From a virus, in the IMG/VR virus record IMGVR_UViG_3300045988_132810, positions 64,001 through 128,000 of that record: a DNA stretch of 64,000 bases; one strand, written 5' to 3'. Positions 39,563 through 62,189 of this stretch are shown piece by piece. The notes under the pieces are model-generated. The model was not told the DNA's origin and ran no database searches. It saw nothing but the letters and a program-made list of their open reading frames with translations. Within the stretch, counting starts at the first letter, position 1. Each line of letters begins with the position of its first letter. A program made the translations under genes and the position numbers.

Positions 39563-39593
39563 GAATTATATTTTATTTTAACTACTTTATGTG

Positions 39594-39914: not shown

Positions 39915-39916
39915 TT

Positions 39917-41047
39917 TTATTTTTCCTCCTTTGCAGGTGGTAATAATTTTGTATTGTTTGAGGAAATAAAGAGTATTTCATAAACCTTGGAGTCAATCAT
40001 GATTTTATATGATTCATCTTTCTCTGCTGTGTATGGAATCGCCAAATAATGATATCCATGAGCTAACGCATATTGTCTTTTATATTCGTCCTTCCATTGA
40101 ATATACTCTAATGATTCTTCTGGAGTCATCTTCATCTTTATGGCATCTTGTTTCACAAAATTCGTTATCTTGAAATGCTGTTCTCCCATTGTCTCAATAA
40201 TCAAATGTAAACCATTAATCAAAATATCATTATCATACGGCATTGGAAAATTAGTTTTTGGATTCTTTGGCAACAAAGAACAATTTCTTTCATGGGCAAT
40301 AGCATATTTGTATTTTTCTGAAATGTACTTTCTTATCTTCTCTTGTAGCCTACTTTCATTCCTTCTTCTAGAGCATTCTGGACATCCATGCCCTCTACTT
40401 CTAGTGTTCGGAGACGATTCCCACTTATGTCCACACGCAGAGCATTTCCACCAATATTTCATGTTAGAACACATAGGAACACTATTTATATCAATCCCGA
40501 CATTCTTTTTATAATCCCATTCATTGATATATTCATGCCCAGAATCTACAATAGAACCCTTTGTAGAAACAATAGTTTTTCTAAGAGAATTTTGTCTAAC
40601 TTTTTTTGCACATTCTGGGCACATAGCCCCGTTAGACCTGTTACTTATTTTTGAATTCCATTTGTGTCCACAAATATGGCACAACCAATTTGCTGCCTGT
40701 CCGGATTTTGCAGTAAAATCTTTTGGAGTCAACCCATTGTTGTTATCATAATCCCAGTCTAGGCAAACCGTTGGATTTATCGTTTGTAAATCATTAAACC
40801 CGACTAGCACCTTCTTCCCGGTACAATATGGACATGAACGTCCACGAGTTTTATCAGCAATTTTCATTTTATATTGATGTCCATAATTACAAACCCAATT
40901 AATCACCTTTCCGGATTTTGGAGCAAAGTCCGATGGCAACATCCCTACATTATTTTCACAATCCCATTCAGAAAGAATATTTTTCTTTTTATTCTGTTCA
41001 CACCATTCATGCAAATTAACTCCAAGTGTCACTACCATTATCTCCAT
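39917..41047 (-). CDS. Triple treble-clef zinc-ribbon protein with C-terminal Vsr/DUF559-like PD-(D/E)xK nuclease module (homing-endonuclease-like)
   Basis: Three copies of the zinc-ribbon unit: INWVCNYGHQYKMKIADKTRGRSCPYCTGKK, ANWLCHICGHKWNSKISNRSNGAMCPECAKK and YWWKCSACGHKWESSPNTRSRGHGCPECSRRR. The C-terminal LIIETMGEQHF resembles the E.dG..H motif of Vsr-like nucleases. Confidence 0.5.
   Translation of the reverse strand: MEIMVVTLGVNLHEWCEQNKKKNILSEWDCENNVGMLPSDFAPKSGKVINWVCNYGHQYKMKIADKTRGRSCPYCTGKKVLVGFNDLQTINPTVCLDWDYDNNNGLTPKDFTAKSGQAANWLCHICGHKWNSKISNRSNGAMCPECAKKVRQNSLRKTIVSTKGSIVDSGHEYINEWDYKKNVGIDINSVPMCSNMKYWWKCSACGHKWESSPNTRSRGHGCPECSRRRNESRLQEKIRKYISEKYKYAIAHERNCSLLPKNPKTNFPMPYDNDILINGLHLIIETMGEQHFKITNFVKQDAIKMKMTPEESLEYIQWKDEYKRQYALAHGYHYLAIPYTAEKDESYKIMIDSKVYEILFISSNNTKLLPPAKEEK
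39945..39958 (-). promoter_or_regulatory. Conserved 14-mer CAATACAAAATTAT (minus strand), copy 1
   Basis: Exact plus-strand ATAATTTTGTATTG. It lies 30 nt upstream of ATG 39914. Confidence 0.5.
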
Positions 41048-41078
41048 TCATTTTAATATAATCTCCACTATTGCTAAG

Positions 41079-41115
41079 TAAAAATAGAGCCGGGAGGGTG
41101 GAGATTCCCTCCCGT
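41079..41115 (-). terminator. Hairpin plus U-tract between a consensus promoter and the zinc-ribbon nuclease gene (terminator or attenuator)
   Basis: The minus strand reads CGGGAGGG-AAUCUCCA-CCCUCCCG followed by GCUCUAUUUUUAC. It lies about 30 nt downstream of the predicted transcription start of the promoter at 41154..41182. Confidence 0.6.
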
Positions 41116-41153
41116 TTTAACAAAGGTCATGACTCCCTGTTCTCTACATATAC

Positions 41154-41182
41154 ATTATATCACAATAATTTTGTTTTGTCAA
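41154..41182 (-). promoter_or_regulatory. Consensus sigma-A/sigma-70 promoter with extended -10
   Basis: The minus strand reads TTGACA-N17-TATAAT, with TG in the extended -10 position (TTGTGATATAATGT). The spacer contains a 13/14 match to the conserved 14-mer (CAAAACAAAATTAT). Confidence 0.75.
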
Positions 41183-41201
41183 GCAAACAAGTTATACAAA
41201 A

Positions 41202-41990
41202 TTATTCATCACCGGGAATGATAATCTGGAATAATTTCTTGTCCTTGTTGCAATATTCCTGCATGGCCTTACCAGAAAATGGGTGCGTACCGTCAGTCTG
41301 GATATTCCAATCGAAATCAGGGCTAAGCTTAAAGTTGGGGAAGATAATATATGCGAACACGAGTTTGGTTTGGTCGCAGACATCACATCCAAGCACCTCA
41401 AGAACTAGCTTGCAAGCAGTTGGGAAGTTGTTAGCAGAGTTCATGACAGAAACTGCCTGAGCTGCCTCATACTCATAAATCACGAATAGCTGATCACCCT
41501 TCTTAAGACCAGTGGGAGGAGTAAGGGTGCTACCGGTCATTGCAAATGAAGAAGCAGAAGCGGAAGTGCTCTTAGTAAAGACTGTACCAAGAGTACCATC
41601 ACCATTTAGAGCATAAATATTCTTAACATCCTCAGTAGGAACATGCTTGAGAGTGTAAGTGGCTGAAGTGCCATCAATATCAATGGTTTCAAATGCAGGA
41701 GTAATAATCTTGTCAGAATCAGAAGCAACCTGTTTGACAGTACCAACTTGGGTTGCCATTAAGTTCATATCAAAAATTGCATTCTCTGCGGAGAACTCTG
41801 CATTTTTTGCACGGTAAAATGTACTGATGGGAACACCTAATGCATCGACTGCATCAGTGCTCTCAGAGCTGCAAGATAAACTTGGGTTAGTAATCTGGTT
41901 TAGTGCGAACATAACAGAGTCATCAGTCTGAGAAAGAGCAACGCCTCTCACGACTCTATCAATTACGAAGTTATTCATATCAAAAGCCAT
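41202..41990 (-). CDS. Major tail (tube) protein candidate
   Basis: 262-aa ORF with a strong ribosome-binding site (GGAGGTAATTTATTATG), preceded and followed by terminators, which suggests high expression. It sits downstream of the connector genes. No sheath gene is seen. The assignment rests on position and composition. Confidence 0.5.
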   Translation of the reverse strand: MAFDMNNFVIDRVVRGVALSQTDDSVMFALNQITNPSLSCSSESTDAVDALGVPISTFYRAKNAEFSAENAIFDMNLMATQVGTVKQVASDSDKIITPAFETIDIDGTSATYTLKHVPTEDVKNIYALNGDGTLGTVFTKSTSASASSFAMTGSTLTPPTGLKKGDQLFVIYEYEAAQAVSVMNSANNFPTACKLVLEVLGCDVCDQTKLVFAYIIFPNFKLSPDFDWNIQTDGTHPFSGKAMQEYCNKDKKLFQIIIPGDE

Positions 41991-42033
41991 AATAAATTAC
42001 CTCCATTAAAATAATAAATTTAAATTTCAATAT

Positions 42034-42062
42034 AATAAAAGAGCTAGTCTTTATCTAGCTCT
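42034..42062 (-). terminator. Hairpin plus U-tract overlapping the stop of the 247-aa gene
   Basis: The minus strand reads GAGCUAG-AUAAAGA-CUAGCUC followed by UUUUAUUAU. Confidence 0.55.
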
Positions 42063-42787
42063 CTCATCCAATTTAATTCTGATTTTTTAATTTTCTTAGT
42101 ATCAATCATTCCTGAATACATCCCTCTTAACAGTGCATCAGAATTGTTGATAACATTCAATCTCGCAATATCATCAAAAAATTCATAAACTTGCATATTG
42201 CGAACGTAATCTTTTGTATATCCCATACGACATTTTACAGAAGAAACAAGTGGAGTAAGAAACGATTTGTAAGGTTTATTTTTATTAATCTCAATTTGCT
42301 TTCTGTCTTCATCAATAAGAATTCTCTTTGTATATTTATTCCCCGCATGTTCCACTTTCTTCTTCAATCCATGGACTTTGCGCAAATAATTTACAATACG
42401 CTCATAAATAAGCATATCTATAACAAGCCCAGTTTCTCTATCCGCAAGAACAATCTGATCATTTTGATTGTTCTTATATGGTTTAAGTTTGGACAAGTCA
42501 ATATCACCTAAAACAATTCTAGTTGTTTCAACATTAAGCGTAGACGCAAGCATCATAAACAGATCAAAATCAGAAATTTCTTCCCAATCAATACCAAGAT
42601 CCCAAAGTTGACTTTTCATATCACTAGGGATTGCAGTTATTGTATGAATAACGCTAAAATACTTGCGCTCTCCATATTGAGCAATTTCACCAATACTTGG
42701 TTGCAACACAGATATATTATCATTAATTACATATGGATCTCCAAAATAAAGACCTAACTCATCAATTTCTAATAAATCCATGTTCAT
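42044..42787 (-). CDS. Hypothetical protein (head-tail/tail module)
   Basis: 247-aa ORF in the packed structural operon. Confidence 0.55.
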   Translation of the reverse strand: MNMDLLEIDELGLYFGDPYVINDNISVLQPSIGEIAQYGERKYFSVIHTITAIPSDMKSQLWDLGIDWEEISDFDLFMMLASTLNVETTRIVLGDIDLSKLKPYKNNQNDQIVLADRETGLVIDMLIYERIVNYLRKVHGLKKKVEHAGNKYTKRILIDEDRKQIEINKNKPYKSFLTPLVSSVKCRMGYTKDYVRNMQVYEFFDDIARLNVINNSDALLRGMYSGMIDTKKIKKSELNWMRELDKD

Positions 42788-43331
42788 CCACCTCGTCGCT
42801 CCTTCTTGGCTGTGGCTTTAAGTATCCACTATTGAGTCTCATATTTGGTTTAACAGCTTCAAACTTTAATGTACGACAATAATAATCATTGTCCATAATG
42901 CTTTCTCTATTATAGACAAGTTTAAGCTTTAGACCGAGTAAATTACTAAAGTTGAAATCATCTTTTACAAAATAACTTAAGAGATCATGACGGGAAATCC
43001 CAATGCCCGTATCAACATCATCGCCATGGCAAAACACAACAAATTGAATATATTGCATTTTCATTACTTCATTATATTTCATATCCTCAATATCATCCAC
43101 AGAAAAACAGATAAAGTTTTTGACTTTATCCTGCGTTTCTGGGATTCTAATAAAAGGGTATATATTGCAATTGAAATAATCTTCTGGCTCTGCATTAACT
43201 CTTTCTAATTCAGTATTATGCAGATATTTAATAATATCTAAATCTTTACAAAGCTTTTCCTTAATCTGACGCTTTGCATAAAGAATATCATCATCAAGAT
43301 TCTGCAAATCACGACCCATAGATGTCATCAT
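42762..43331 (-). CDS. Hypothetical protein (head-tail/tail module)
   Basis: 189-aa ORF. Its start overlaps the upstream stop. Confidence 0.55.
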   Translation of the reverse strand: MMTSMGRDLQNLDDDILYAKRQIKEKLCKDLDIIKYLHNTELERVNAEPEDYFNCNIYPFIRIPETQDKVKNFICFSVDDIEDMKYNEVMKMQYIQFVVFCHGDDVDTGIGISRHDLLSYFVKDDFNFSNLLGLKLKLVYNRESIMDNDYYCRTLKFEAVKPNMRLNSGYLKPQPRRSDEVDEHGFIRN

Positions 43332-44695
43332 AATCCTTCCACCTCCACAGCCAAAGTAGCAGAAGGAGTTTGTATTTCTGTTGGATCATCATCAACACTA
43401 ATAATTATACTTCCGCCAATCATATTTAAAATCTGCAAACATTTCAGTTTCAGATCCATTGGCTTCTCAATATTATAGTCATATTGAATACCAAATAATT
43501 GCTCATTATTTTCTTTATAAACAATCTTATTCTTATCAACAACAAACTCACCATTACTGTTATCGCAAACAAGTTGATCATTTATATAAATAAATCCTAC
43601 AACACACACAAGAGAGTCATTATTATAATACTCAATGCGCCAATAAGGTCTATCAGTAACAAATTCTCCATTCTTGTATAGATTTGCAGTAAAAGTTTTA
43701 TAACTTCCTCCAGCCTTCATACTTGGAGCAACTCCAGTATAAGAAATTACACTAGTTTCTACATCCCAAGCATCAGAAGGTGAATGGATGTTGTTGTCAT
43801 TAGTTCTCTCTTTGTAATAGTCGTACTCAACTCCAGTATTTTTGTCTGAGAAATTATTACTCTGGAAATTAATCCAAGAAACATTATCTACGACATCAAA
43901 TTCGAGCTCCTGTGTAAAAGTTAATTTAGTCAGCCCAAAAGTAGTAGTATTCTCTACCTTAGAAACTTCCCACGCAATCCTGCGAAGAGGATTATCACTA
44001 ATAACAAAATGCTCATTATAAGTTATCGTATTTGTATCTACATTGGTTGGCAAAACTGCTTTCAGTTGGTTCTCTACAGATTGGACATAGTAATCCATCC
44101 AAACACCTGAGTTATAACTGCTCTGTGTTCTTTGCACAGCCCATGAAAAATATGTACCAACATCAACATGTTTTCCTTCATACAATGGCCAGTCTTTTTC
44201 TTCAATTTCCCATTTTAACAAAAGATTGCATTTTAAAATATAAAATTGTGGAAATTGTGGTCTATCATCACGAGCGACAATTAACCACAAATTATATATA
44301 CCAAGATCATCTGGTACAAACACAAATGAGCCAACTCTCACATTTGGATTCCTTCCATGTTCAAGTGGTCGAAATTGCAGGTAATAATCTACCTGATCTC
44401 CCGAAACACTATAATATGCATGCACCAGATACTTGGCATCTATAGGCTCAAAGCCCATAATTTTTTGTGGATTATATTTTTCCGCACCATGAAATACCGC
44501 CTTAGCTTTCTTATAACCAGCAAGTGTTTGTTCTGGGAAAATAACATCTTTATCCTGAATATAACATTTACGATATGCCACATCATTCGTAAAAGTAGCA
44601 TCCATAATCTTATCAGATTGGTGCTTAAACACTTCTCCCACATTACGACCTTGAAGCCTCATCCGATTATTAAATAAATCATACATCGGAATCAA
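43328..44695 (-). CDS. Hypothetical structural protein (455 aa)
   Basis: Long ORF in the connector region. I did not recognise any motif. Confidence 0.55.
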   Translation of the reverse strand: MIPMYDLFNNRMRLQGRNVGEVFKHQSDKIMDATFTNDVAYRKCYIQDKDVIFPEQTLAGYKKAKAVFHGAEKYNPQKIMGFEPIDAKYLVHAYYSVSGDQVDYYLQFRPLEHGRNPNVRVGSFVFVPDDLGIYNLWLIVARDDRPQFPQFYILKCNLLLKWEIEEKDWPLYEGKHVDVGTYFSWAVQRTQSSYNSGVWMDYYVQSVENQLKAVLPTNVDTNTITYNEHFVISDNPLRRIAWEVSKVENTTTFGLTKLTFTQELEFDVVDNVSWINFQSNNFSDKNTGVEYDYYKERTNDNNIHSPSDAWDVETSVISYTGVAPSMKAGGSYKTFTANLYKNGEFVTDRPYWRIEYYNNDSLVCVVGFIYINDQLVCDNSNGEFVVDKNKIVYKENNEQLFGIQYDYNIEKPMDLKLKCLQILNMIGGSIIISVDDDPTEIQTPSATLAVEVEGL

Positions 44696-44987
44696 CCTCC
44701 TTTATTTCATTTACAAGAGAACATGCATCTAAAATATCTTTTCTATACTTAAGAAAATCAGTTTCATAACGTGCTGATTCTAAAATACTCATTAAAGTTA
44801 TAATTTTAGGCTGTTCCATAAATAAACTATTTAGCCCACTAATGCGCTGTAAAAGAGTTTGAAAATATTTATCCAACAGTTCATATCCATCTTCTTTATA
44901 TGGTAGCAGCTTATAAATTGCACCCTGAAGACGTATTTTTTCTTCATGGATTTGGTTTTGAGGCAATACCCCGTATTTAAAATTCAT
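44679..44987 (-). CDS. Hypothetical protein (connector region)
   Basis: From track ORF 44679..44999. Start moved to ATG 44987 (MNFKYG), 8 nt after GGGTGG. Confidence 0.5.
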   Translation of the reverse strand: MNFKYGVLPQNQIHEEKIRLQGAIYKLLPYKEDGYELLDKYFQTLLQRISGLNSLFMEQPKIITLMSILESARYETDFLKYRKDILDACSLVNEIKEVDSDV

Positions 44988-45001
44988 ACGCAACACCACC
45001 C

Positions 45002-45421
45002 TTAACCAAAATAATCATTTGTTACATAACTATAGTCACGTGGTAGTTTTCTAGCTTCGGTAAACGTAGCGTCCCTGAGAGCTTTTAATGTTTCTAGCTG
45101 ATTCGCTTGACTAAAAAACTTCTCTTCTTTACCACCGATAAACTGATTTGTAAGCAATACACTATTAATCCTTTGATCAAGCCATGCACAAACCATATAC
45201 AATGATAAAACTTCAATCTCATAATTAGTTAAATCAGCATTAAATGTCTTACTTTCATCATCTCTATTAGATAAATCAGACTTACATCTAGTAAAATTCG
45301 CAATCGCGCTTGTTAACCAACCACACATCATCTCATCCAAATCTTCTTCTGGAAGAAGAGGAAGATCGTAATCTGTAATTCGGTTAAGAAAACGCTTAAA
45401 AATTGTTTCGTAGGAAGTCAT
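45002..45421 (-). CDS. Head-tail connector/adaptor-like protein
   Basis: 139 aa, helical. Its position and size resemble gp6/gp15-type adaptors. The call rests on position. Confidence 0.4.
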   Translation of the reverse strand: MTSYETIFKRFLNRITDYDLPLLPEEDLDEMMCGWLTSAIANFTRCKSDLSNRDDESKTFNADLTNYEIEVLSLYMVCAWLDQRINSVLLTNQFIGGKEEKFFSQANQLETLKALRDATFTEARKLPRDYSYVTNDYFG

Positions 45422-45440
45422 TCCCTAACCTCCTTACTTA

Positions 45441-45995
45441 TTACTGAATTAGCAACTTCAATTCTGTTCCCAAAATCTCATCGAGCGCATTAATCTTTGC
45501 AAGACTGTCTAAAGAGCCATTACGAATTTTATCACCCGCGATATTCTTTACAGAGTCTTTAAAGCCAACTGGGATTTCACGAAGTCTCTTCTTAAATTGA
45601 TTAATTGGAAGATTAAATAAACTATCCACATCAACGGCTGCAACTTTGTCATACAACGTCTTAAATTCAGGCCATTGTTCAAGAAGCTCTTCATCTTCAA
45701 TTACAAAATATGGTGCGTTTAAATATGCTGACCTTGTAGATCTCAACGCTTGAAGGTCTTGAAATTCAACTTCAGTTGTATCCCCATAATTAGCCCACGT
45801 ATAAAGAAGCTGAGACTTCTTACCCGGTAGCAATAATTCTCCAAAAGTCACAGACTTACAAAGAATAGGATCATCCATAGCAAACTTGCGAGGCGCCTTA
45901 TTTTGAGTTGCTTTAACTGCTTCATTTTCAACAGAAGCACTTACATCTTCTACAGAGGCGGATGCCTCTGGCTTTTTATTTCTTGTACCTGCCAT
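45441..45995 (-). CDS. Hypothetical protein downstream of the capsid gene
   Basis: 184-aa ORF. The conserved 14-mer lies 26 nt upstream of its ATG. Confidence 0.55.
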   Translation of the reverse strand: MAGTRNKKPEASASVEDVSASVENEAVKATQNKAPRKFAMDDPILCKSVTFGELLLPGKKSQLLYTWANYGDTTEVEFQDLQALRSTRSAYLNAPYFVIEDEELLEQWPEFKTLYDKVAAVDVDSLFNLPINQFKKRLREIPVGFKDSVKNIAGDKIRNGSLDSLAKINALDEILGTELKLLIQ

Positions 45996-46021
45996 TAAAA
46001 TTTCTCCTTTTATTCCTTAAA

Positions 46022-46035
46022 ATAATTTTGTATTG
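46022..46035 (-). promoter_or_regulatory. Conserved 14-mer CAATACAAAATTAT, copy 2
   Basis: Exact plus-strand ATAATTTTGTATTG, in the intergenic region 26 nt upstream of ATG 45995. Confidence 0.5.
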
Positions 46036-46042
46036 TTAATTA

Positions 46043-47131
46043 TTACTTAATAATCTTCCAGTAGCCAAACTTCTGATTGAGCATAACACCAATGCCCATC
46101 TTGGTTTGTACCTCATAATCATATGTCATATCCATATGAGTGCCTGCATCCTGCACCTGATACATACGAGTATCACCCTCGTAAACAAGCTTTAGCATTG
46201 GCTCAACACCAACAGGCATAATGAATAGAACATCATTAGCAACTAGATACTGAGTGGTATCATTAAGCTTGAAGCCCTGCTTTAGCTCAACTAGACGAAT
46301 TCCTTCCCAATAGCCAAAACGACCAGTGGTATACATCTCGTTCTTCATGTCGCCAGAAGCCCAAGAGACATCATTAAGAGCAAACACACTAGCAAGAGCT
46401 GCACGAGTACCCATAATTACAACTTCGGAATCAGATGCCATGCCGACATCCATGCATAGAGTGCGTAGAGTCTCCTTGGTAGAAGCATCAATAGCAGAAG
46501 ACTTGTACCACTGAGCACCTAGAGTAGTGCCAACACCAATTAGGGCCTCATAAAGGGCCTGATTGACATAACGATCAAAAGCCTCAGTAATCTTACTAAC
46601 TAGAGTAGCAAAATCCTCAACGCCAGTAAGTAGACGCTCAAATTCTGCATAAACCTTCACGGCGTACCAGCTAGTCTCAACAGAGAAGACCTTGCCAGCA
46701 CCTAGTCTCTGACGGATAATATCGTGATGGTTGCCTGAAACCTTCATAACAGAAAGAACACTGTTGTCAGGAACATAGAACTCGTTCTTGTCGCCAAGAG
46801 CAAGATTCTTGACATCAACATACTCTCTAAAGAAAGGATTCTCTTGCCAGCCGCTAACTAGAGCGTCATCAATAGTCTCCTCAATAATATCAAATAGAAC
46901 TGCCTGATTCTTACGAATACCACGTCTAATCTCAGCCTTTGTAGAATGCTCATCGCAACCAATCACCTGACGGAAAACTTCTACAATCTTATCATTAGCT
47001 TCCTTAACAGAATAGCCATCAACAGTGCCACGAGCGGCATCAAGCATTAGCTTATTAAAAGCAACATAATCATTCACATCATCATTAAATGCATGCTGAA
47101 CCTTTGCATCAAAATTCATAAACTTAGACAT
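46043..47131 (-). CDS. Major capsid protein candidate
   Basis: 362 aa, a size compatible with the HK97 fold. It sits downstream of the portal and scaffold-like genes and is followed by connector genes. Confidence 0.6.
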   Translation of the reverse strand: MSKFMNFDAKVQHAFNDDVNDYVAFNKLMLDAARGTVDGYSVKEANDKIVEVFRQVIGCDEHSTKAEIRRGIRKNQAVLFDIIEETIDDALVSGWQENPFFREYVDVKNLALGDKNEFYVPDNSVLSVMKVSGNHHDIIRQRLGAGKVFSVETSWYAVKVYAEFERLLTGVEDFATLVSKITEAFDRYVNQALYEALIGVGTTLGAQWYKSSAIDASTKETLRTLCMDVGMASDSEVVIMGTRAALASVFALNDVSWASGDMKNEMYTTGRFGYWEGIRLVELKQGFKLNDTTQYLVANDVLFIMPVGVEPMLKLVYEGDTRMYQVQDAGTHMDMTYDYEVQTKMGIGVMLNQKFGYWKIIK

Positions 47132-47162
47132 AATTAATTTCCCCCTTCCTTAAATTCCTATA

Positions 47163-47678
47163 TTACATACCAAGACTCTCAACGTGGAGTCTGTAAGAAA
47201 CACCATTGGTGTAATTAACCTTCTCAATGATCTTTAGAGCAATACCAGACTTAGGAGCTGCTGCAGCTTCCTTATAAAGACCATTCTCAATCTCTACATA
47301 ATTACCAACAACTGGAGCGGTAGCTAGGGCAGTGATTGCATCATCAGACACCTCAAAGATGTCGTTAACATAAAGCTCATAAGCACGAGCAATCTCACCG
47401 GCAGCATTATAGAAATACTTTTCCTCCTGATAATACTTACGATCACTGTTGTAACCAATTGGAGTCGTAAGCACTAGATATGGCTTCTTACCAGCGGCAT
47501 AATCAGCACTATCGAAAACCTGTGCCTCAACCCATGCGCCACGAGTAATAATAGAACCATTATCTAGATCCTTATGGCACTTAACAGATAGGATATGACC
47601 TACTTCAGTACCCTTGAGCAAACTTGAGCTGCAAACTACATGTGCATCTCCAACAATCTTGTCATAAACATTTGCCAT
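47163..47678 (-). CDS. Hypothetical head protein (decoration or scaffold-like by position)
   Basis: From track ORF 47163..47720. Start moved to ATG 47678 (MANVYDK), preceded by AAAGGA. Confidence 0.4.
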   Translation of the reverse strand: MANVYDKIVGDAHVVCSSSLLKGTEVGHILSVKCHKDLDNGSIITRGAWVEAQVFDSADYAAGKKPYLVLTTPIGYNSDRKYYQEEKYFYNAAGEIARAYELYVNDIFEVSDDAITALATAPVVGNYVEIENGLYKEAAAAPKSGIALKIIEKVNYTNGVSYRLHVESLGM

Positions 47679-47720
47679 AATTATTTTCATCCTTTCATAA
47701 TTAAAAATTTGTTTTAACAT

Positions 47721-47749
47721 AACAAAAAGCTATTTATACAATAGCTTTA
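47721..47749 (-). terminator. Hairpin plus U-tract after the 585-aa gene
   Basis: The minus strand reads AAAGCUAUU-GUAUAA-AUAGCUUU followed by UUGUUAU. Confidence 0.5.
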
Positions 47750-47775
47750 AGTCTAAATAAGAGATTTATTATTTA

Positions 47776-49533: not shown

Positions 49534-49584
49534 ATATTCTCCCTCCTTTCATTAAAAGATATCTATGTAATGCTCGGAAGGAGC

Positions 49585-49776: not shown

Positions 49777-49789
49777 ATATATACCTCCT

Positions 49790-51349: not shown

Positions 51350-51366
51350 TTATTTCACCGCCTTTC

Positions 51367-54568: not shown

Positions 54569-54608
54569 CCCATTCTCACTTCCTTTGTATCTTATTGAGC
54601 AGAATTAA

Positions 54609-54833
54609 TTATTCTACTGCTGTATTTTTAGCTGCCTTAATTTGTTCATTGATTTCTGACATCGCCTCGTTAAATTTTTCATCTTTAACAAATACGAATA
54701 CCGTCTTGTCCTTTGGGTTCTCCTTTGACGGCTTTAAATCACAAATAGTACATCCTATTTTAAGAAGATGTCTGGCTATTCCTGCATTAAATACTAATTT
54801 GCAATCATGTTTAATTATTTCTTTGTTTTCCAT
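54609..54833 (-). CDS. Hypothetical small protein (DUF5659-like)
   Basis: 74-aa ORF. The resemblance to the DUF5659 family rests on memory alone. Confidence 0.4.
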   Translation of the reverse strand: MENKEIIKHDCKLVFNAGIARHLLKIGCTICDLKPSKENPKDKTVFVFVKDEKFNEAMSEINEQIKAAKNTAVE

Positions 54834-54919
54834 ATTTTAATTGTCCTTTCCAATTATTTTCTAAATCTTTCCAATAGTTTGTTCATTTTGTACCTCTTAT
54901 AACTATAACTTTGCATTAC

Positions 54920-56116
54920 TTAAAGCTTGATATTATAAGTACAAATTTTACCGTCTTCTTTGTCAAAAATACACAAAGTTTGAGCAGGATTTGCATATAA
55001 TCTTTTATTATTCGCATAATCGTCAGTTCCGCATAAAGAACTCACCATTACGTTATCAATTCCATAAGAATCAATTGTTTCCGAATGATGTTTATCACCA
55101 GAAAATACATACTCAACATCAAGTCCATATTTTTTTCCAAACAATGTGTGCATATCCACGCCAAGCTTCCCAAAGCGTTCTAGATCTCCATGAACCGCAA
55201 CAACATCGTGGTCAAGCACATTAAATGAAATAAACTCATTAATATTGTTGTCTAAAACATAAACTTTCTCATTTTGTGAAAGCCTTTGATTGATCCACCA
55301 TTGAATGATTTTCTCCATATTATCAGAATGAATGCTATCATTCTTGTTTTGAACAGATCTTGCATGATTCCCATATGTAGAATAGACATACACACAATTT
55401 ACGTATTGTGATAATGAGCTAATAAGCTCTGCAAGAAGTTCAGAAACCTCCATTAATTGGTCGCATGTATCCTCTTCTGACGCAACACGTGCACCAGTAT
55501 GTATACACCCATGGATAAAGTCTCCTAAAAGCACAATATGAAGCTTATTAATATTATTTACCCTCAAATACTTAATTGCCTTATTAAATAAAATATTAAC
55601 ACGCTCTACACATGTTTCGACGTCATATTTGTTCCAAATATTATTAGTAACCATGCCATAATGCCAATCTGTTAAAACTAAAACCGCTTCATTCTTTGCT
55701 TCAACAAATGACTCGTTATTAGAATTTAATAATTTACTTGAATTTAAATTGTCTGCTGCTTCAATTAATTTCTCGGTCAGATGTTCAGCTCTTGCATCAC
55801 TCGTTAGCAGCTTATTATATTCTCTTCTTTGATCTTGAAATTGTTTTTTTGCCTTATAAAGTTCATCAGTTTGTCTCTGAATCTCCTTAAGATATTCATC
55901 ATCAGAGAAAACCTGTTTTTCACACGCCTTCAATCCATGTTGAAACATCTGATATTTCTTACGATAAGCACTCTCACCAAAATTTTGGTTTAATGCGGTA
56001 TTAATAATGTCGGCAATTTGCTGCCATGTCATCCCAGAAGACTGCTTCATCGAACAAATTCTATAGATATATTGTTCTTCGCTTTCTTTTTCAGGATTAA
56101 AATTAATTATCTCCAT
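54920..56116 (-). CDS. Calcineurin-like metallophosphoesterase with N-terminal helical domain
   Basis: The ordered motifs LTDWHYG, LLGDFIHG, YGNHAR, VHGD and SGDKHH match the Metallophos signature. Confidence 0.75.
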   Translation of the reverse strand: MEIINFNPEKESEEQYIYRICSMKQSSGMTWQQIADIINTALNQNFGESAYRKKYQMFQHGLKACEKQVFSDDEYLKEIQRQTDELYKAKKQFQDQRREYNKLLTSDARAEHLTEKLIEAADNLNSSKLLNSNNESFVEAKNEAVLVLTDWHYGMVTNNIWNKYDVETCVERVNILFNKAIKYLRVNNINKLHIVLLGDFIHGCIHTGARVASEEDTCDQLMEVSELLAELISSLSQYVNCVYVYSTYGNHARSVQNKNDSIHSDNMEKIIQWWINQRLSQNEKVYVLDNNINEFISFNVLDHDVVAVHGDLERFGKLGVDMHTLFGKKYGLDVEYVFSGDKHHSETIDSYGIDNVMVSSLCGTDDYANNKRLYANPAQTLCIFDKEDGKICTYNIKL

Positions 56117-56128
56117 CTGCTTCGTCCT

Positions 56129-56156
56129 TTCTCTTATATAAAAAAGACGAGGATTA
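56129..56156 (-). terminator. Rho-independent terminator overlapping the HU gene stop
   Basis: The minus strand reads CGAGGA-AUAA-UCCUCG followed by UCUUUUUUAU. Confidence 0.65.
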
Positions 56157-56474
56157 TTCCTCGCCTTCTCTATTACATAATTCTCTAATTTTTAGTTGAT
56201 ATGCCTGTGTAAACTTGGCACGTGGATAAATGTGGTCTTCACTAACTGTCTTTTCGCCAGTTCTTGGCTTAACAGTTTCCTTCCCACCATAAAACTTCGC
56301 CTCAATATTAAGCCCCTCAAATAGTTTAATAACTGGCAAATCATCTGGCGTCGCATGCGATAAAATATCTGTAATTACTGCAAAAGTACCTCTATAAATA
56401 TCCTTTACTGCACCTTGGTAATATCCAGACTCCTTTGCAACCATTTTAACTAGATCATTCTGTTTATAAATCAT
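56154..56474 (-). CDS. HU/IHF-family DNA-binding protein
   Basis: NDLVKMVAKESG...AVKDIYRGTFAVITDIL...IKLFEGLNIEAKF...KPRTGEKTVSEDHIYPRAKF fits the HU fold pattern (beta-arm R..TGE). The protein is 106 aa. Confidence 0.7.
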   Translation of the reverse strand: MIYKQNDLVKMVAKESGYYQGAVKDIYRGTFAVITDILSHATPDDLPVIKLFEGLNIEAKFYGGKETVKPRTGEKTVSEDHIYPRAKFTQAYQLKIRELCNREGEE

Positions 56475-56498
56475 TGTAATCTTCCTTTCTCGTATTTT

Positions 56499-56678
56499 TT
56501 ATCTGATGTCAATAGTTCTTGTAACGGTTAAAGTAATTAATTCACCATCAAGTTCTTTTAATAATTCTGATAGCGAAGCAGTCTTCCCGTCACTAAGAAA
56601 TTCTATCTGTGTATCATTTTTATTAATGTCTAAATAACCACACAATTTAATTTCTGTAGTCTTTAAAGCATCATTCAT
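56499..56678 (-). CDS. Unlisted 59-aa ORF, paralog of the adjacent 62-aa gene
   Basis: Hand translation: MNDALKTTEIKLCGYLDINKNDTQIEFLSDGKTASLSELLKELDGELITLTVTRTIDIR. Its ATG overlaps the upstream TGA (ATGA). It falls below the 60-aa cutoff of the track. It shares the (V/A)SLSEL(F/L) core with 56675..56863. Confidence 0.55.
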   Translation of the reverse strand: MNDALKTTEIKLCGYLDINKNDTQIEFLSDGKTASLSELLKELDGELITLTVTRTIDIR

Positions 56679-56863
56679 GAAAGTTCCTCGCCATATGCAA
56701 TGCTAAGTTTAACATCTTTATCTGCAAAATCTACAAAGAGCTCTGATAGTGATACGACATCTCCCGTATCATCATTTTCAACAAAAACTTCGTCATTATT
56801 AATACGAAGGATCCCACTTGCCTGAATTGTATACTTACTCTGAATCTTAGCTGCCATAATCAT
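56675..56863 (-). CDS. Hypothetical small protein
   Basis: 62-aa ORF with the ribosome-binding site AAAGGAGAAAAATG. Confidence 0.55.
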   Translation of the reverse strand: MIMAAKIQSKYTIQASGILRINNDEVFVENDDTGDVVSLSELFVDFADKDVKLSIAYGEELS

Positions 56864-56887
56864 TTTTCTCCTTTATTGCTTTTATTT

Positions 56888-57601
56888 TTATCCTTGAAGC
56901 TCATCAGCCCAAGAGCTGACAATACCTCTATGATTAGTATTTAGCTCACAAATTTGTGCATAGTCTTTGTCCTTAAAATGCTCAATATATTTTACAAATC
57001 CGCTATTTTCTGGATGATGGTACAAATCACATTGTCCACTATGCCCAATTACGATTGTCTTAGATGTATCAGAAATTCTGGTTAATACTTTTTTTAACTC
57101 ATCAACATACATGTTTTGAGTTTCTTCAATAATAACCACTTTATTTTCTAGGTTGCATCCTCTTAAATAGACGTGAGAGATACAATCAATATATCCAGTG
57201 CCATTCTTTTGGTTTTCTACACCCTCCTGAATGACTGCAGTATATGGGTTAATCCCTAACTTTATCAAAGCATCATATAGTGGAGCGGTATAAATAGAAA
57301 TTTTTTCATCAGCACTGCCGGGAAGAAATCCAAGTTTTTCTTCCTGTACAGGACTAACTATATAAACGATTCCATCATAAACATTATGCTGAACCAAAAG
57401 ATTTGCTGTAGCAACTGCCATTAAAGTCTTACCAGTACCTGCTTTTGCATTTGCAAAAATAATTAACTTTTCTGGATTTAAAATGGCATTTACAAATTCT
57501 TTCTGTTCCTCGTCTAATAAAATACCATAAAATGGATGACCATCAATGTTCTTTGGAACGTCCCCATATTCATTTACAACATTCTTTCTCTTAGTTGCCA
57601 T
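56888..57601 (-). CDS. phoH: PhoH-like ATPase
   Basis: Walker A AKAGTGKT, and VVIIEETQNMYVDELKKVLTRISDTSKTIVIGHSGQCD matches the PhoH (PF02562) core. Start moved to ATG 57601 (MATKRKN), preceded by GGAGG. Confidence 0.85.
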   Translation of the reverse strand: MATKRKNVVNEYGDVPKNIDGHPFYGILLDEEQKEFVNAILNPEKLIIFANAKAGTGKTLMAVATANLLVQHNVYDGIVYIVSPVQEEKLGFLPGSADEKISIYTAPLYDALIKLGINPYTAVIQEGVENQKNGTGYIDCISHVYLRGCNLENKVVIIEETQNMYVDELKKVLTRISDTSKTIVIGHSGQCDLYHHPENSGFVKYIEHFKDKDYAQICELNTNHRGIVSSWADELQG

Positions 57602-57615
57602 ATAGACCTCCAAAT

Positions 57616-58233
57616 TTAAAACAGAACATCTAAATCTGTAATAATCTCGTCAATAATTCCGTTTGCTAGTGCTTCTTCTTCGTCGAGATACCAATCAGAC
57701 GGAGCTTTTCTCTTATATACCTTCGGATCAATCTTTGTATGACCAAGGAAGTATTCAGTGACTCTCTTAGTAAGCTTATCACCAAACTTTTTCATTGATT
57801 CTGCTTGTTCTTGTGTTCCGCCATAATAACAAGATCCAGAATGAACCAGAACAGAAGTGCCCGGAAGTGCATAACGCTTGTGGCCAGCAGACAGGATGTC
57901 TGCAGCAGCAGAGTAGGCACAACATAGATTGATTGTCCAAATAGGCGTTTTGCTAATTTCCATAAGCTTAATAAAACTCCATGTAGCAGACACGTCACCG
58001 CCCGGTGAATCTATCACAATCTTGATTGGTAGACGCTGCTCAATTGGTACGTCTTTATCTTCTCTATTCCAACGAATAATCTCCTTAGACAATTCGAAAA
58101 GATTTTCATCAATCTGCTCGTCAATATAGAGTACACGATGTTCAATGTCTCTATAATAATTTCTTAATTCCGGTGAAGGTAGGTGCAAATTTGCTACTGT
58201 TTCAGGAATTGCTACTAATAGTTCTTGTTCCAT
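57616..58233 (-). CDS. clpP: ClpP-family serine protease
   Basis: IDSPGGDVSATWSFIKLM...INLCCAYSAAADILSAGHKRYALPGTSVLVHSGS matches the CLP_protease (PF00574) pattern. Start moved to ATG 58233 (MEQELL), preceded by GGAGGAATACC. Confidence 0.85.
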   Translation of the reverse strand: MEQELLVAIPETVANLHLPSPELRNYYRDIEHRVLYIDEQIDENLFELSKEIIRWNREDKDVPIEQRLPIKIVIDSPGGDVSATWSFIKLMEISKTPIWTINLCCAYSAAADILSAGHKRYALPGTSVLVHSGSCYYGGTQEQAESMKKFGDKLTKRVTEYFLGHTKIDPKVYKRKAPSDWYLDEEEALANGIIDEIITDLDVLF

Positions 58234-58363
58234 GGTATTCCTCCGTTTCGTTTCGTAGAATTTATATATACATGTGCTGGCATATATATACCATATAGTT
58301 AAAGCTCGACCCAACTTTTTTAGTAGTGGAGTATATAAATGCGTATAATTTTTGTATAAAGCT

Positions 58364-58377
58364 ATAATTTTGTATTG
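58364..58377 (-). promoter_or_regulatory. Conserved 14-mer CAATACAAAATTAT, copy 3 (plus a degenerate copy at 58345..58358)
   Basis: Exact plus-strand ATAATTTTGTATTG in the 160-nt intergenic region upstream of clpP. An imperfect second copy, ATAATTTTTGTATA, lies adjacent. Confidence 0.5.
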
Positions 58378-58395
58378 TTAAAAATGTTGATACGG

Positions 58396-59292
58396 TCATG
58401 ATTTTTCTCTAACTCTCGCCCTATAATTTATATTTTTCTTTACATTCCTATCTCGTTGATGTTGTTTATTACAAGTCGGGCATCTACAAGTATGTGTATC
58501 TTTTATAGGTATTTCAACCTCATCGCCACAATCAATACACCATATGAGTTGTGGGAGAGAAGAAGAGAGTGAACAGGCAGTGCATATGTCATCGCTGGCT
58601 TTGCTTTTCATGAGCCTACCGCAACGAGTACATCTCTTGAATTTTTCTTTTCCCTTCCAATTAAGATATACATACGCAAGCTCTTGACAATCAATCTCAT
58701 TCAAACGAAATACTTCTTCTCCATCTTTATCAATAAAATTAACCCACAAGCATTTTGTATCATTTCGTTTAGGACAACTAATAAGACCTTGAGTAAGAAT
58801 GTAATGTAAAATATATTCTCTATCGTCTGCTGGGACAGAAACTCTAGCAATTTTACACAGCTCTGTAACAGTATACCTTACAAGACCTTCTGTGAAATTG
58901 GCTGAAGTCCCATAGCACTCCATGATTTTTGCTTGTTGCTTTGCCATGCATAAAAGAACAAACAATATTTTTTCAGCTCGTATGTTGTCTAATGATTGTA
59001 TCTTTTCAAGTTCAGTTTTAGTAATAACAACATCATCTATTTTATACAACTTTCTCTTCTTTGCACTTTTAATCGCCTTCGATATAACATTTGAATAACT
59101 AGATTCATCAAAATTATCTTGATGCTTAGTCATCCATGCAACAGTAGAGTTGTAATTTTTACTTTCATCTTTCCCTAAGACTTGTGCATTGTATCTTGTG
59201 ATATATCCAATTTTTTTAATAGCAGACTTTATATCTTTATTTTTGCCTAACAACAAACTTTTGACATATTTTTCTTCATCAAATATCATCAT
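58396..59292 (-). CDS. Hypothetical protein with C-terminal double zinc ribbon, translationally coupled to the RNAP-like gene
   Basis: 298 aa. Zinc-ribbon cysteines: CTRCGRLM...CTACS and CIDCG...CRCPTCNKQ. The start overlaps the 3' end of 59279..62155 by 14 nt. Confidence 0.55.
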   Translation of the reverse strand: MMIFDEEKYVKSLLLGKNKDIKSAIKKIGYITRYNAQVLGKDESKNYNSTVAWMTKHQDNFDESSYSNVISKAIKSAKKRKLYKIDDVVITKTELEKIQSLDNIRAEKILFVLLCMAKQQAKIMECYGTSANFTEGLVRYTVTELCKIARVSVPADDREYILHYILTQGLISCPKRNDTKCLWVNFIDKDGEEVFRLNEIDCQELAYVYLNWKGKEKFKRCTRCGRLMKSKASDDICTACSLSSSLPQLIWCIDCGDEVEIPIKDTHTCRCPTCNKQHQRDRNVKKNINYRARVREKS

Positions 59293-62155
59293 TTACATCA
59301 CCAACTTCCTTAGTACATAAAGAAAATGTCTTTCCGCAAAATTCTATATCACCATTTTCGTCTTTAATGGGGAACTGAATTTTATTACCATTTTTTTGTG
59401 CCACATTACGAAAAATTTGTTCTCCAGCTATATCCCAAGCAAAAGACTTATTTTTACTAGAAGTATAACAAATATCTACTAAAATATTTGCAAGGATTTC
59501 CTCATTTGGACAAATTAAATGACTAGCCATTATAAAATTTTCTTTAATCCCAATTGCGATAATTTCCGCATCCTCATTATTAGTTTCTGTTTTTGACCTT
59601 CCTTTAGACAAAATTAACATTTGCTTTCCATACTCAATATACAAATCATTAATTAAATCAAATTCTTCTTGAGAATACTGTGCATTACTCTTTAAAATAG
59701 ATGCATCAAACTCCACATTAGGTAGAACATTAGTTGTTTGAAACTCATTTTCAATTTTCCAACAAATCCTATTCATTGTACCCGTAGCTCTACTTACAGG
59801 CATATACTTCTCATAATTGTAAATAAAAGCTTCTTCTTCTTCAGTCCTATCATCAGAAGCACATAAATCTTCTAAAGTTTTTCCAAATCTTATCTTACAA
59901 TTTGATTTTACAGACTTCATATATTTATCAAGTTCAGCCTTTAGCTGAGAATACCTATAAATAAAGAACCATGGCTTAATATTTGAAGCGATTCTGGTAT
60001 CAATCTCTTTATCATGTATAACTTCCAGAGAATCACCTGATTTTGACTTATGCATTCTTGCCTCTAGCCATTCTTTTGGCACAGGTTTTGCAATAACCCC
60101 CTTAATGCGATCTATGGCATTTTGCTGATAATTCATCATCGTACTAATACGATAAGTTAATCTCTTATATTCTTCACTGTCTGGATCAAATTTTTCTCTT
60201 AGAGAAATCATATTAGTTGCCTTGTTAGTCACACTACCAATAGAATCTCCAAACCCATTAATATCCGATGTAACGAAATCCTCTTCCGTAGGAACTTTCT
60301 TTGGCATCTTGTCTTGTTCGCACATTAATGTTGGCTTATATTCAAATGCATCAAGAAGCACGTGATTGTTGCTTGTAAAAAAAGTATCAGAGTCGTAATC
60401 AGCCCCATTGCATCTAATAGCAGTAGTGTCCCAGCTATTTAAGAACATGCATGTTTTAACATATCCATACCATTTTTCCATTTCAGGACTAGAAACAACA
60501 TTTAGTTTACAAACATTTTCTATGGATGTCATTGGAGCACGAAATGCACATATCTCTTTTACTCCTTTATCGCTCCAATACTTGTGATAACATTCACCTG
60601 CGTGAAGCAGTCCAGAGATCTCTATCCCGAACATATTTTGAAGCAATGAATATGGATCATTTCCTATAATTGCATAGTCTCCCTCAACATCTAATACACC
60701 TATTTTAGCGGTTCTGATGCGCTTTTGTATCATCCTACTAACTTTAGACCGTACATAAGGATCTTTAATTAATTCAGGATTTGCCATAATTGCCTTACAC
60801 ATTGGATCCATACTATCAACATTTTTGTCATCCAGTCCAGTTCCACACATGTATAAAATTAGTTTTCTCCAATCTAAACCAAGACATTCTTTAATTTTCG
60901 TTACTGTTGGGGCAACCAATTCATTAATTTGTTCATCTGTAAACCTAAAATCTTGTAAATATTGATAGTTTGTAGTGTGAACATTACGCAATTCACGTGG
61001 AGCGCTCTTTGCTATACAAAAATCATAGTCATTTTCCTTACAATTGCGCAAATAATCTTCACATCCTGCATAAGAGTCCCATAATTTTAACATCGAAGTT
61101 GTTAAAATAACATCTGCATTACGAATATCTTGTTTATCTCCCCATGCGTCAGTTATTTCATATGTATGTGCTACTTCCTCCGCAAATTGTACAAAAGGGA
61201 CAGTAAACACCATGCCCTTTAAAAATGCACATCTAGTATTATAACCAGAGAGCGGCTCAGTACCTTCTCCTAACCATTCAGCCCATTTTGAACTCATTTC
61301 TGGAGAAATAAACCCCATTCCGTCAGAAACATTATAGTCAATCTTTTCTTCATGAGGCTCACTAACACTTGGCCAATCAGGATTCTTGTCATTGCCAGTA
61401 TCCTTTACTATTCTTACAGGATAATTAAAATGAGTTTCTGCATCTTTAACTACAATAACTCTTGGCCAAGGTCTTTCAGGATCTGTGAATGAGCCTACTG
61501 TAATACTAGCAGAGCACTGTAGTGCAAAATATGCAGATAATTTTGCTGGGATAAACTTATAATTAAGTTCCATTCCATTGTAAGTTTTAACAGACTCCAG
61601 AAGATTGTTGTTATTATCAACTTTTGGCCCCAAATAACGTCCATTATTAATACGGCGCATAATCTCATCATGCATGTCTTCATTTATGAACATGATTGTG
61701 CTCTTCTTTATAGATCCCGCCGTACCAAGAAGACGAACATAGGTTACTGTTTCTTCTTTCCCATTGCCATAATCAATAGTGATACTAAATTTGTTTTGGC
61801 ATACATACCTATAATCACCCGGAGAGTCCATAACAAGCATCACATAATCCTGCTGAAATTGCTTTTGATACAATTCATTATATAGGGAACAAATCTTCGT
61901 TTTATTTTCATAATTGTTCTCCATTTTCTTTGCGTTTTTAATCTCTGCTTTAATCTCAGTAGCTCTCGCGTCATCTTTTTCTCTATGTTGCAACTTTGTA
62001 AGCCATCTAAGAACCTGAGAAGACCCTAGACTAACGACCATCTGTGGTTGCTTTCTAATCTCACTTAACTTAAAGTCTAAATGCCAATTGTGTTTTGATA
62101 GATACCCACTATGTATTTTTAGCACATAAGTTTGGTTTTTTTGCTGCTTTGCCAA
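59279..62155 (-). CDS. Candidate single-subunit two-barrel RNA polymerase (YonO / cellular RdRP-like)
   Basis: 958 aa with a TTG start. ICAFRAPMTSIENVCKLNVV...AIRCNGADYDSDTFFTSNN (DYDSD at 60386..60400) resembles the universal NADFDGD / DxDGD metal-binding loop, preceded by the RxP...v.vv strand seen in YonO and QDE-1-type polymerases. The gene is followed by HU and packaging genes, as yonO and yonN are in SPbeta. Confidence 0.5.
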   Translation of the reverse strand: MAKQQKNQTYVLKIHSGYLSKHNWHLDFKLSEIRKQPQMVVSLGSSQVLRWLTKLQHREKDDARATEIKAEIKNAKKMENNYENKTKICSLYNELYQKQFQQDYVMLVMDSPGDYRYVCQNKFSITIDYGNGKEETVTYVRLLGTAGSIKKSTIMFINEDMHDEIMRRINNGRYLGPKVDNNNNLLESVKTYNGMELNYKFIPAKLSAYFALQCSASITVGSFTDPERPWPRVIVVKDAETHFNYPVRIVKDTGNDKNPDWPSVSEPHEEKIDYNVSDGMGFISPEMSSKWAEWLGEGTEPLSGYNTRCAFLKGMVFTVPFVQFAEEVAHTYEITDAWGDKQDIRNADVILTTSMLKLWDSYAGCEDYLRNCKENDYDFCIAKSAPRELRNVHTTNYQYLQDFRFTDEQINELVAPTVTKIKECLGLDWRKLILYMCGTGLDDKNVDSMDPMCKAIMANPELIKDPYVRSKVSRMIQKRIRTAKIGVLDVEGDYAIIGNDPYSLLQNMFGIEISGLLHAGECYHKYWSDKGVKEICAFRAPMTSIENVCKLNVVSSPEMEKWYGYVKTCMFLNSWDTTAIRCNGADYDSDTFFTSNNHVLLDAFEYKPTLMCEQDKMPKKVPTEEDFVTSDINGFGDSIGSVTNKATNMISLREKFDPDSEEYKRLTYRISTMMNYQQNAIDRIKGVIAKPVPKEWLEARMHKSKSGDSLEVIHDKEIDTRIASNIKPWFFIYRYSQLKAELDKYMKSVKSNCKIRFGKTLEDLCASDDRTEEEEAFIYNYEKYMPVSRATGTMNRICWKIENEFQTTNVLPNVEFDASILKSNAQYSQEEFDLINDLYIEYGKQMLILSKGRSKTETNNEDAEIIAIGIKENFIMASHLICPNEEILANILVDICYTSSKNKSFAWDIAGEQIFRNVAQKNGNKIQFPIKDENGDIEFCGKTFSLCTKEVGDVNDDI

Positions 62156-62175
62156 TAAATATCACCGCCCTTACT

Positions 62176-62189
62176 ATAATTTTGTATTG
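62176..62189 (-). promoter_or_regulatory. Conserved 14-mer CAATACAAAATTAT, copy 4
   Basis: Exact plus-strand ATAATTTTGTATTG. It lies 20 nt upstream of the TTG start at 62155 and 17 nt downstream of the -10 box of the sigma-A promoter. Confidence 0.5.

Follow-up and report, generated by a model that had tools for sequence, protein, structure and literature searches.

A strand-specific intergenic element in a family of ~150-kb gut phages, a candidate promoter for their YonO-type RNA polymerase

Introduction

YonO-type enzymes are single-chain relatives of the cellular multisubunit RNA polymerases and have been proposed to be ancestral-like. In phage SPbeta, a block of 37 late genes is read by YonO as a single unit, and several stem-loops are annotated in this block. 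A single YonO-dependent late start, P_YonO, has been reported, lying downstream of yonO-yonN and upstream of yonK-yonJ, terminase, and portal; the study did not define its promoter sequence and left open both the nature of the promoter and the need for a factor (Forrest et al. 2017, PMC5467207). Full-text literature searches returned no later definition of a YonO promoter or factor. Here, we describe a 14-nt sequence, CAATACAAAATTAT, that recurs in a 64,000-nt stretch of viral DNA encoding a polymerase of this family (IMG/VR record IMGVR_UViG_3300045988_132810, positions 64,001 to 128,000; this whole stretch is hereafter referred to as the window), and we weigh the hypothesis that this motif is the promoter used by that polymerase.

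Promoters of phage polymerases are a familiar type of element, as are repeated operators, while a consensus or factor for a two-barrel single-subunit polymerase would be new. The promoters of T7, T3, and SP6 resemble the motif in being asymmetric sequences (15-23 nt) that are conserved, multi-copy, intergenic, and co-oriented, that vary with the polymerase among related phages, and that have some copies inside the late region; there, too, the polymerase gene is first expressed by the host enzyme, as in the model we favor below. They differ in that T7 RNA polymerase is unrelated to the two-barrel YonO/RdRP-like enzyme of the window, which is co-encoded with a conserved accessory protein, and in that T7-type promoters do not overlap host promoters, whereas half of the motif copies do. 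Late promoters of the Bacillus phage AR9 contain a short A/C-rich AACA motif ~8-11 nt upstream of the start and are read by a non-virion multisubunit polymerase with the help of its specificity subunit, gp226, giving short leaders. AR9 differs in its split beta/beta'-like subunits, its uracil DNA, and its template-strand recognition.

The closest repeated operator is SPBRE, which is bound by MrpR (YopR), the master repressor of SPbeta (Kohm et al. 2023, PMC10516654), and for which we derived the consensus cAAATACAAAwAATATGTATAtA. Like the motif, SPBRE is a repeated element of ~15-20 bp that is present at the polymerase-operon promoter. It differs in its inverted-repeat character (ATACA...TGTAT) and in being tied to promoters everywhere, whereas half of the motif copies have no host promoter and copies both head and lie within the late operon.

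Repeated element in the window

Nearly all long open reading frames (ORFs) of the window are encoded on the minus strand; the motif is written here in that orientation and reads ATAATTTTGTATTG on the plus strand. A preliminary description of the window had counted four exact copies in gene orientation and judged this number to be beyond chance. That judgment is borne out: no exact copy of CAATACAAAATTAT arose in 100/100 dinucleotide-preserving shuffles, and the sequence tops both the 12-mer and the 14-mer repeat counts of the window. When up to 2 mismatches are allowed, the window, which is AT-rich (G+C 32-45%), holds 6 matches versus 2.5 expected. The positions 46022, 58364, and 62176 given earlier for three copies stand, as do the distances of 26, 130, and 20 nt to the next start codon; the remaining copy begins at 39943 rather than 39945 and lies 28 nt, not 30 nt, 5' of the ATG of a 106-aa Cys-rich ORF (all coordinates are collected in Table 1).

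The settings of the copies vary. The one preceding the polymerase gene lies 17 nt 3' of the -10 hexamer of a consensus sigma-A-type promoter. The copy at 58377 heads the structural (late) gene block with no sigma-A element near it, and no convincing one is found near the copy at 46035. A further copy, with 13 of 14 matching positions, fills the spacer of a second consensus promoter, as had been noticed before; it spans 41165-41178. In exact copies of this spacer type, the first ACA of the motif forms the end of TTGACA; the window copy has AAA at this place, and the same site is an exact 14/14 match in the relatives L045 and L088. This copy and the one at 41192..41205 on the opposite strand make up an inverted pair. 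The promoters at 62234 and 41182 are the only perfect host-type promoters on the gene strand, and both are motif-associated. The degenerate copy reported downstream of 58377 is present as ATACAAAAATTAT (58345-58357, rather than 58345..58358) and is only loosely kept among relatives.

The earlier extension of the motif by an upstream AA applies to three copies, while the copy at 62189 reads GGCAATAC in the window and GACAATAC in all close relatives. The 14-mer is the core of a ~16-nt asymmetric element, which takes the form wACAATACAAAATTATw in the clade of the window and the general form ACAnwACAAAAT followed by T/G, A, and T/A across clades.

The gene downstream of the 62189 copy, previously labeled RNAP-like, encodes a YonO-family polymerase. 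We base this assignment on the match of its 958-aa product to the Pfam RdRP family PF05183 (46.1 bits against a cut-off of 23.8; E = 4e-12), on its homology to YonO, and on the metal-binding motif GADYDSD (DxDxD type). Identities in tblastn are 38% to Clostridium phage c-st, 35% to Enterocloster phages, and 24% to SPbeta YonO, with E = 3e-11 against SPBc2 yonO and E values down to 3e-26 in the reverse search. Beyond the polymerase gene and its 298-aa partner (p298), genes follow for a ClpP-family protease (with its ATG at 58233-58231 and GGAGG upstream), PhoH, an HU-like protein, a yonJ-like exonuclease, the portal, a 362-aa protein, and virion and tail proteins. This order matches that of the SPbeta late block after yonO-yonN. 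The 362-aa gene had been taken for the capsid gene; no function is assigned to the PHROG family to which it belongs.

Conservation across related phages

A search with the polymerase yielded 54 loci from contigs of 130-170 kb, with polymerase identities from 99% to 38%. The comparison covers ~20 kb of each relative and the 64 kb of the window genome. With at most 1 mismatch, 1.04 Mb of relatives contains 98 matches on the polymerase strand versus 9 on the opposite strand (50 versus 1 for exact matches). A generalized pattern, ACAnnACAAA[AG]T[GTA]A, yielded 149 unique copies, with 104 co-oriented with the polymerase gene and 5 opposite; those of the 5 that we inspected each face a start codon or hairpin downstream on their own strand. 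Only 15 of 120 unique copies (12.5%) lie in ORF interiors, which make up 79% of bases (nominal binomial p = 5e-55; the copies are phylogenetically non-independent, and p-values are therefore nominal). The strand and intergenic bias that the preliminary description had proposed to check for is present in the 54 related loci. When 94 copies whose flanks are unrelated are compared, sequence information is limited to ~17 nt. Scanning viral contigs for the 14-mer turned up several of 130-156 kb with multiple copies, every one of which also carries a YonO-type polymerase gene and falls within the 54 loci. As far as sequence comparison can tell, the element is conserved across a family of ~150-kb gut phages and appears to mark the starts of transcription units in this 130-170 kb family.

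The unique copies fall into four contexts. The largest group (77 copies) has no -35 or -10 element nearby and often sits right past the previous stop codon. In 46 copies, 17 of them with a -10-like hexamer only, the motif lies 1-4 nt past a -10 hexamer, so that a sigma-A start would lie inside the motif; 18 copies are of the spacer type, and 8 lie ~17 nt downstream of a promoter, these being mostly the pre-polymerase copy. The offsets of the -10 hexamer are discrete: it begins 10, 7, or 22 nt before the motif, or 18-20 nt past the motif start. Copies tied to host promoters dominate upstream of the polymerase gene, and promoter-free copies dominate on the structural-gene side. Among 41 host-promoter-free copies with unrelated flanks, the motif is the sole conserved sequence (~17 nt). 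Some promoter-free copies directly adjoin a Shine-Dalgarno sequence (e.g., CAATACAAAATTATAGGAGG), leaving no room for a separate downstream core promoter.

Terminator-like hairpins follow 10/103 copies and precede 9/103, versus 2% of random windows. These rates are no more than expected of intergenic DNA. At several copies, such a hairpin lies between the motif and the next gene.

Outside the motif-bearing clades, no counterpart emerged. Repeated k-mers in Enterocloster phage PMBT24 proved to be coding words, and the repeat in L167 is the AT-rich upstream part of host-type promoters on the opposite strand; no analogous repeat was found in L174.

The host of the phage family is probably a member of the Lachnospiraceae, as hinted at by L179 (JAZRQP010000051.1, 162,567 bp; polymerase 70% identical), the sole match in species-representative genomes, which belongs to a metagenome-assembled genome (MAG) bin of Faecalimonas sp. 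A megablast search with 56-64 kb of the window against the phage collection gave no match.

We also observed that the polymerase gene is split by an insertion of 0.4-1 kb in L155-L157, L158, L160, L161, L168, and L171. In L158, L161, L168, and L171, the insertion holds an ORF with its own motif copy 5' of it (ACAATACAAAATTAAttatgaaaggagg...ATG), an arrangement suggestive of an intron or of an endonuclease gene that is free-standing. In the window, several small ORFs (118, 141, and 98 aa), each with CxxC...CxxC zinc-ribbon motifs, lie 5' of the polymerase gene (62241-63765).

Clade variants and the partner protein

Three of the four exact copies in the window have orthologs in relatives. Every relative with a polymerase identity of 82% or more has the pre-polymerase copy, and in clades at 62-73% identity, variant forms of the motif at this site adjoin the ribosome-binding site. 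The copy past the p298 gene is found, with a clade-specific 3' end, in every clade that has p298. The copy past the 362-aa gene has orthologs in L045 (TTAT) and L106 (TTAA).

The 3' end of the motif differs by clade. It is TTAT in relatives with polymerase identity of at least 82%, TTAA at 77-81%, TGATT at 68-70%, GTGATT in the L131/L155 group, and TAAT/TAAC at 44%. Within a genome, the 3' end shifts at all sites together, including those before the same orthologous genes, and the variants follow the polymerase/p298 module, whereas mosaicism is seen in clpP, phoH, and the exonuclease gene. This pattern points to a reader that is encoded by the phage and not by the host.

A plausible candidate for the reader is p298. 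The preliminary description had called this 298-aa protein a zinc-ribbon protein, a label that agrees with our analysis: p298 is a conserved partner of the polymerase, encoded in an overlapping frame. Sequence searches gave weak zinc-ribbon matches only, to RNA polymerase subunit P/Rpb12, and the protein has 861 database homologs. Its predicted structure (mean predicted local distance difference test [pLDDT] score of 85.7) comprises a helical domain at the N-terminus, a winged-helix-like domain, a pair of zinc ribbons, and a long helix at the C-terminus; the winged-helix-like unit has the order helix-strand-helix-helix-strand-strand. A Foldseek search against the Protein Data Bank (PDB) returned no significant match (best E = 0.05), with weak matches recurring to winged-helix proteins (CRP/FNR, PerR/Fur, ORC, and PCI domains).

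The p298 gene lies directly 3' of the polymerase gene in all motif-bearing clades, down to 44% polymerase identity, and in Enterocloster phage PMBT24 a homolog (hhalign probability 94%, E = 1e-7) is found in this position, again overlapping the polymerase gene. The two 38% clades (L167 and L174) and SPbeta lack p298; all have an HU-like gene in its place and no motif. Polymerase and p298 trees agree, and no recombinant tells which of the two would be the reader.

Promoter reading and alternatives

We favor, with moderate confidence, the hypothesis that the motif is the promoter used by the phage's own YonO-type polymerase, with p298 possibly acting as its sequence reader. The phages encode an RNA polymerase, and the motif is an asymmetric, multi-copy, intergenic, co-oriented sequence. 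Its best-conserved copy separates the polymerase/p298 module from the clpP-phoH-HU-like-exonuclease-portal block. In the proposed mechanism, host sigma-A polymerase would first make the phage polymerase from the 62234 promoter. The phage enzyme would then initiate in the motif or just 3' of it, producing either a short leader before the ribosome-binding site or, at the late operon, a structured leader of 130 nt, and would transcribe the structural genes through hairpin terminators that stop the host enzyme. Short leaders are evidently tolerated, and spacer-type sites (TTGACA-motif-TATAAT-agaaaaGGAG) likewise produce very short ones. The late-operon copy is followed by conserved leader elements and, in several clades, by a terminator-like hairpin, as the 41182 promoter is; a polymerase insensitive to hairpins would suit such a layout. 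The hypothesis accounts for all contexts of the motif. Promoter-free copies would serve as stand-alone promoters for the late operon as well as for late genes and endonuclease genes. Those tied to host promoters would form tandem or overlapping host and phage promoters at genes needed both early and late, so that a motif in or next to a sigma-A promoter (at early genes and the polymerase gene) would hand transcription over from the host to the phage polymerase.

Several observations weigh against this hypothesis. The co-variation of motif, polymerase, and p298 is confounded by shared ancestry, with no recombinant separating them or excluding an unseen regulator. The window has only 4-5 copies in 64 kb, one of them just past the presumed capsid gene, an unusual spot for a promoter. 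The region of the YonO start in SPbeta contains nothing that clearly matches the motif and lacks conservation in the SPbeta-like phages. Moreover, 72/149 unique copies overlap or follow host-type promoter elements (17 of these a -10-like hexamer only) at discrete offsets, the classic signature of an operator, and the motif core is present in 47/89 near-consensus sigma-A promoters, with degenerate copies in several others. These last points suggest an SPBRE-like operator at which a phage repressor or early shut-off protein would keep host sigma-A polymerase from early promoters and the polymerase gene; this protein could be p298 or an MrpR-like one whose gene lies outside the window. SPbeta, a distant relative, offers a strong precedent: SPBRE has the AATACAAA core in common with the motif, is always co-oriented with the downstream gene, and is similarly placed, either in a sigma-A spacer (TAGACA-17-TATAAT, including the yonP-yonO promoter) or just past the -10 and adjoining the Shine-Dalgarno sequence (yopV, yopM). 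The inverted partner at 41192-41205 and the predicted winged-helix-like domain of p298 also fit an operator. A pure repressor, however, fails to explain the 77/149 copies without a sigma-A element, which include the head of the late operon and the copy past the presumed capsid gene. All SPBRE sites of SPbeta are tied to promoters and none is in the late block, whereas four copies in the window (58377, 46035, 41178, and 39956) are inside the structural block. The motif is also non-palindromic and usually single, tblastn with YopR across the window and ~1.1 Mb of related loci (part of each genome) found no MrpR/YopR homolog, and the only genome-collection match is a free contig of 162 kb in the Faecalimonas MAG, giving no sign of lysogeny. 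Of the two readings offered in the preliminary description, promoter and operator, both survive; its leaning toward the operator, which drew on copies that overlap host-type promoters, gains from the SPBRE precedent and loses from the promoter-free copies, and we consider an operator, the main alternative, rather unlikely.

We assign a low probability to a role of the motif in RNA, as a leader or intercistronic element just 5' of the ribosome-binding site through which a phage-encoded RNA-binding protein, a nuclease (processing site), or a small RNA would act on translation or on the stability of the mRNA. Such a role would account for the strand-specific, intergenic placement of the motif, for the short distance (0-30 nt) between the end of most copies and a Shine-Dalgarno sequence and start codon, and for the copies past a -10, which would form the 5' end of early mRNAs. 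Against it, the 18 spacer copies are upstream of the start site of their promoter, and hence outside its mRNA, ~130 nt and several hairpins separate the best-conserved copy from the next start codon, no Rfam family matches, and the concerted change between clades rules out the host ribosome as reader; the spacer copies and the distant late-operon copy likewise argue against a translational operator or enhancer. The idea that the motif is a functionless compositional repeat of AT-rich DNA, or a mobile-repeat remnant, can draw on the base composition and the small excess of matches with at most 2 mismatches, and it is hardly credible given the absence of exact copies from shuffles, the orthologous positions in dozens of diverged genomes with unconserved flanks, and the extreme strand bias and ORF depletion; the conservation data effectively refute it already. 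Nor is the motif itself a host sigma-A promoter, as it is neither hexamer and promoter-free copies conserve nothing outside it. Depletion from ORFs led us to reject a Chi-like, packaging, or replication site, and the lack of a -10 at promoter-free copies led us to reject a MotA-type or Q-type site for the host polymerase.

A combination of the promoter and operator readings is also rather unlikely: p298 would be a new promoter-specificity factor for YonO-type polymerases, loosely analogous to TFE/TFB. Bound to copies within or just past sigma-A promoters, p298 would also exclude the host enzyme, and a single protein-DNA contact would switch a gene from host to phage transcription. SPBRE would then be a diverged relative of the motif, captured by a different binder.

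If the motif is the promoter of the phage polymerase, it would be the first promoter, possibly with the first initiation factor, for the YonO-type class, and it could yield a new orthogonal transcription system. The phage family offers a consensus with natural specificity variants (TTAT, TTAA, TGATT, and GTGATT), dozens of orthologous sites, and a candidate factor. Through a link to SPBRE, the control of lysogeny in SPbeta-like phages would be tied to their late transcription.

Comparison with the SPbeta late start

P_YonO and the 58377 copy share the polymerase family, the syntenic place, and a non-coding leader downstream; SPbeta differs in having yonN (HU-like) where the phage family of the window has p298. 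The primer-extension primers bracket the YonO start to 6355-6573 (-) of the SPbeta locus L120. This stretch contains gattAAACAATAtctac, which SPbeta-like phages do not conserve and SPbetaL7 has lost by deletion, and no link could be made between it and the motif.

Elsewhere in L120, at 5167-5180 (-), SPBc2 carries AAATAGAAAATTATtggagg, a 12/14 match to the motif that lies 5' of yonK and adjoins its ribosome-binding site. It is not among the reported MrpR peaks. We note that the locus has 4 matches with at most 3 mismatches, against 5.7 expected by chance. The yonN-yonK spacer of SPBc2 also contains, at 5410-5475 (-) of L120, a match to the DUF3800-VIII RNA (RF03075, 47.5 bits) within a 1.7-kb unannotated stretch downstream of the YonO start, and the Goe14 record annotates a 'skipping-rope' RNA in the yonN-yonK spacer region.

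Table 1. Coordinates of the motif copies, promoters, genes, and other elements in the window
Feature	Position	Strand	Remark
Exact motif copy	62176..62189	-	20 nt 5' of the TTG start of the polymerase gene
Exact motif copy	58364..58377	-	19 nt past the stop of the 298-aa gene, 130 nt before clpP
Exact motif copy	46022..46035	-	Begins 8 nt past the stop codon of the 362-aa gene; next ATG 26 nt downstream
Exact motif copy	39943..39956	-	Within the final 40 nt of the 376-aa HNH/DUF4379 endonuclease-like ORF
13/14 motif copy	41165..41178	-	Fills the 17-nt spacer of a 12/12 TTGACA/TATAAT promoter
Degenerate motif copy ATACAAAAATTAT (one inserted A)	58345..58357	-	6 nt downstream of the 58377 copy
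Inverted 12/14 motif copy	41192..41205	+	Just 5' of the -35 of the 41182 promoter
Sigma-A-type promoter TTGACA-16-TATAAT (12/12, TG-extended)	62207..62234	-	Upstream of the polymerase gene
Sigma-A-type promoter TTGACA-17-TATAAT (12/12, TG-extended)	41154..41182	-	Motif in spacer
Terminator-like hairpin with T-run (CGGGAGGGAATCTCCACCCTCCCG)	41091..41114	-	~40 nt past the 41182 promoter, before the 376-aa gene
958-aa YonO-family single-subunit two-barrel RNA polymerase	59279..62155	-	Assigned from Pfam, tblastn, and GADYDSD motif
p298, 298-aa partner protein	58396..59292	-	First 14 nt shared with the 3' end of the polymerase gene
ClpP-family prohead protease gene	57616..58233	-	First gene past the late leader
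Second conserved element of the late leader, GGTCGAGCTTTAACTATATGGTATATA (GGTCGAGATTTTCCTAATGGATATA in other clades)	58285..58312	-	Once per genome

Late leader and other features of the window

The late leader (58234-58363) contains a second conserved element, which is found past the p298 gene as GGTCGAGATTTTCCTAATGGATATA in L132, L134, L135, L142, L144, L173, L151, L160, and others. RNAalifold pairs TAGGAAAA with TTTTCCTA. The leader has two alternative TTTTCCTA partners for TAGGAAAA, suggesting that its RNA may be structured or switching. The TAGGAAAA/TTTTCCTA pairs are invariant, and RNAalifold found no covariation in the leader. Rfam gave no match at gathering score in the whole window and, with E values up to 10 allowed, nothing but noise in the leader.

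The layout of promoter and strong hairpin at 41050-41182 (-) is also kept in L045 and L106. This unit could be a small RNA or an attenuator passed only by a terminator-insensitive polymerase. It adjoins an island of homing-endonuclease-like genes (38824-41047) between the virion-structural and tail-fiber genes, whose members include the 376-aa HNH/DUF4379 treble-clef protein and a 135-aa endonuclease-like protein. The island has promoters of its own: the one at 41182, the motif at 39956, and TTGACA-16-TAAAAT at 39597.

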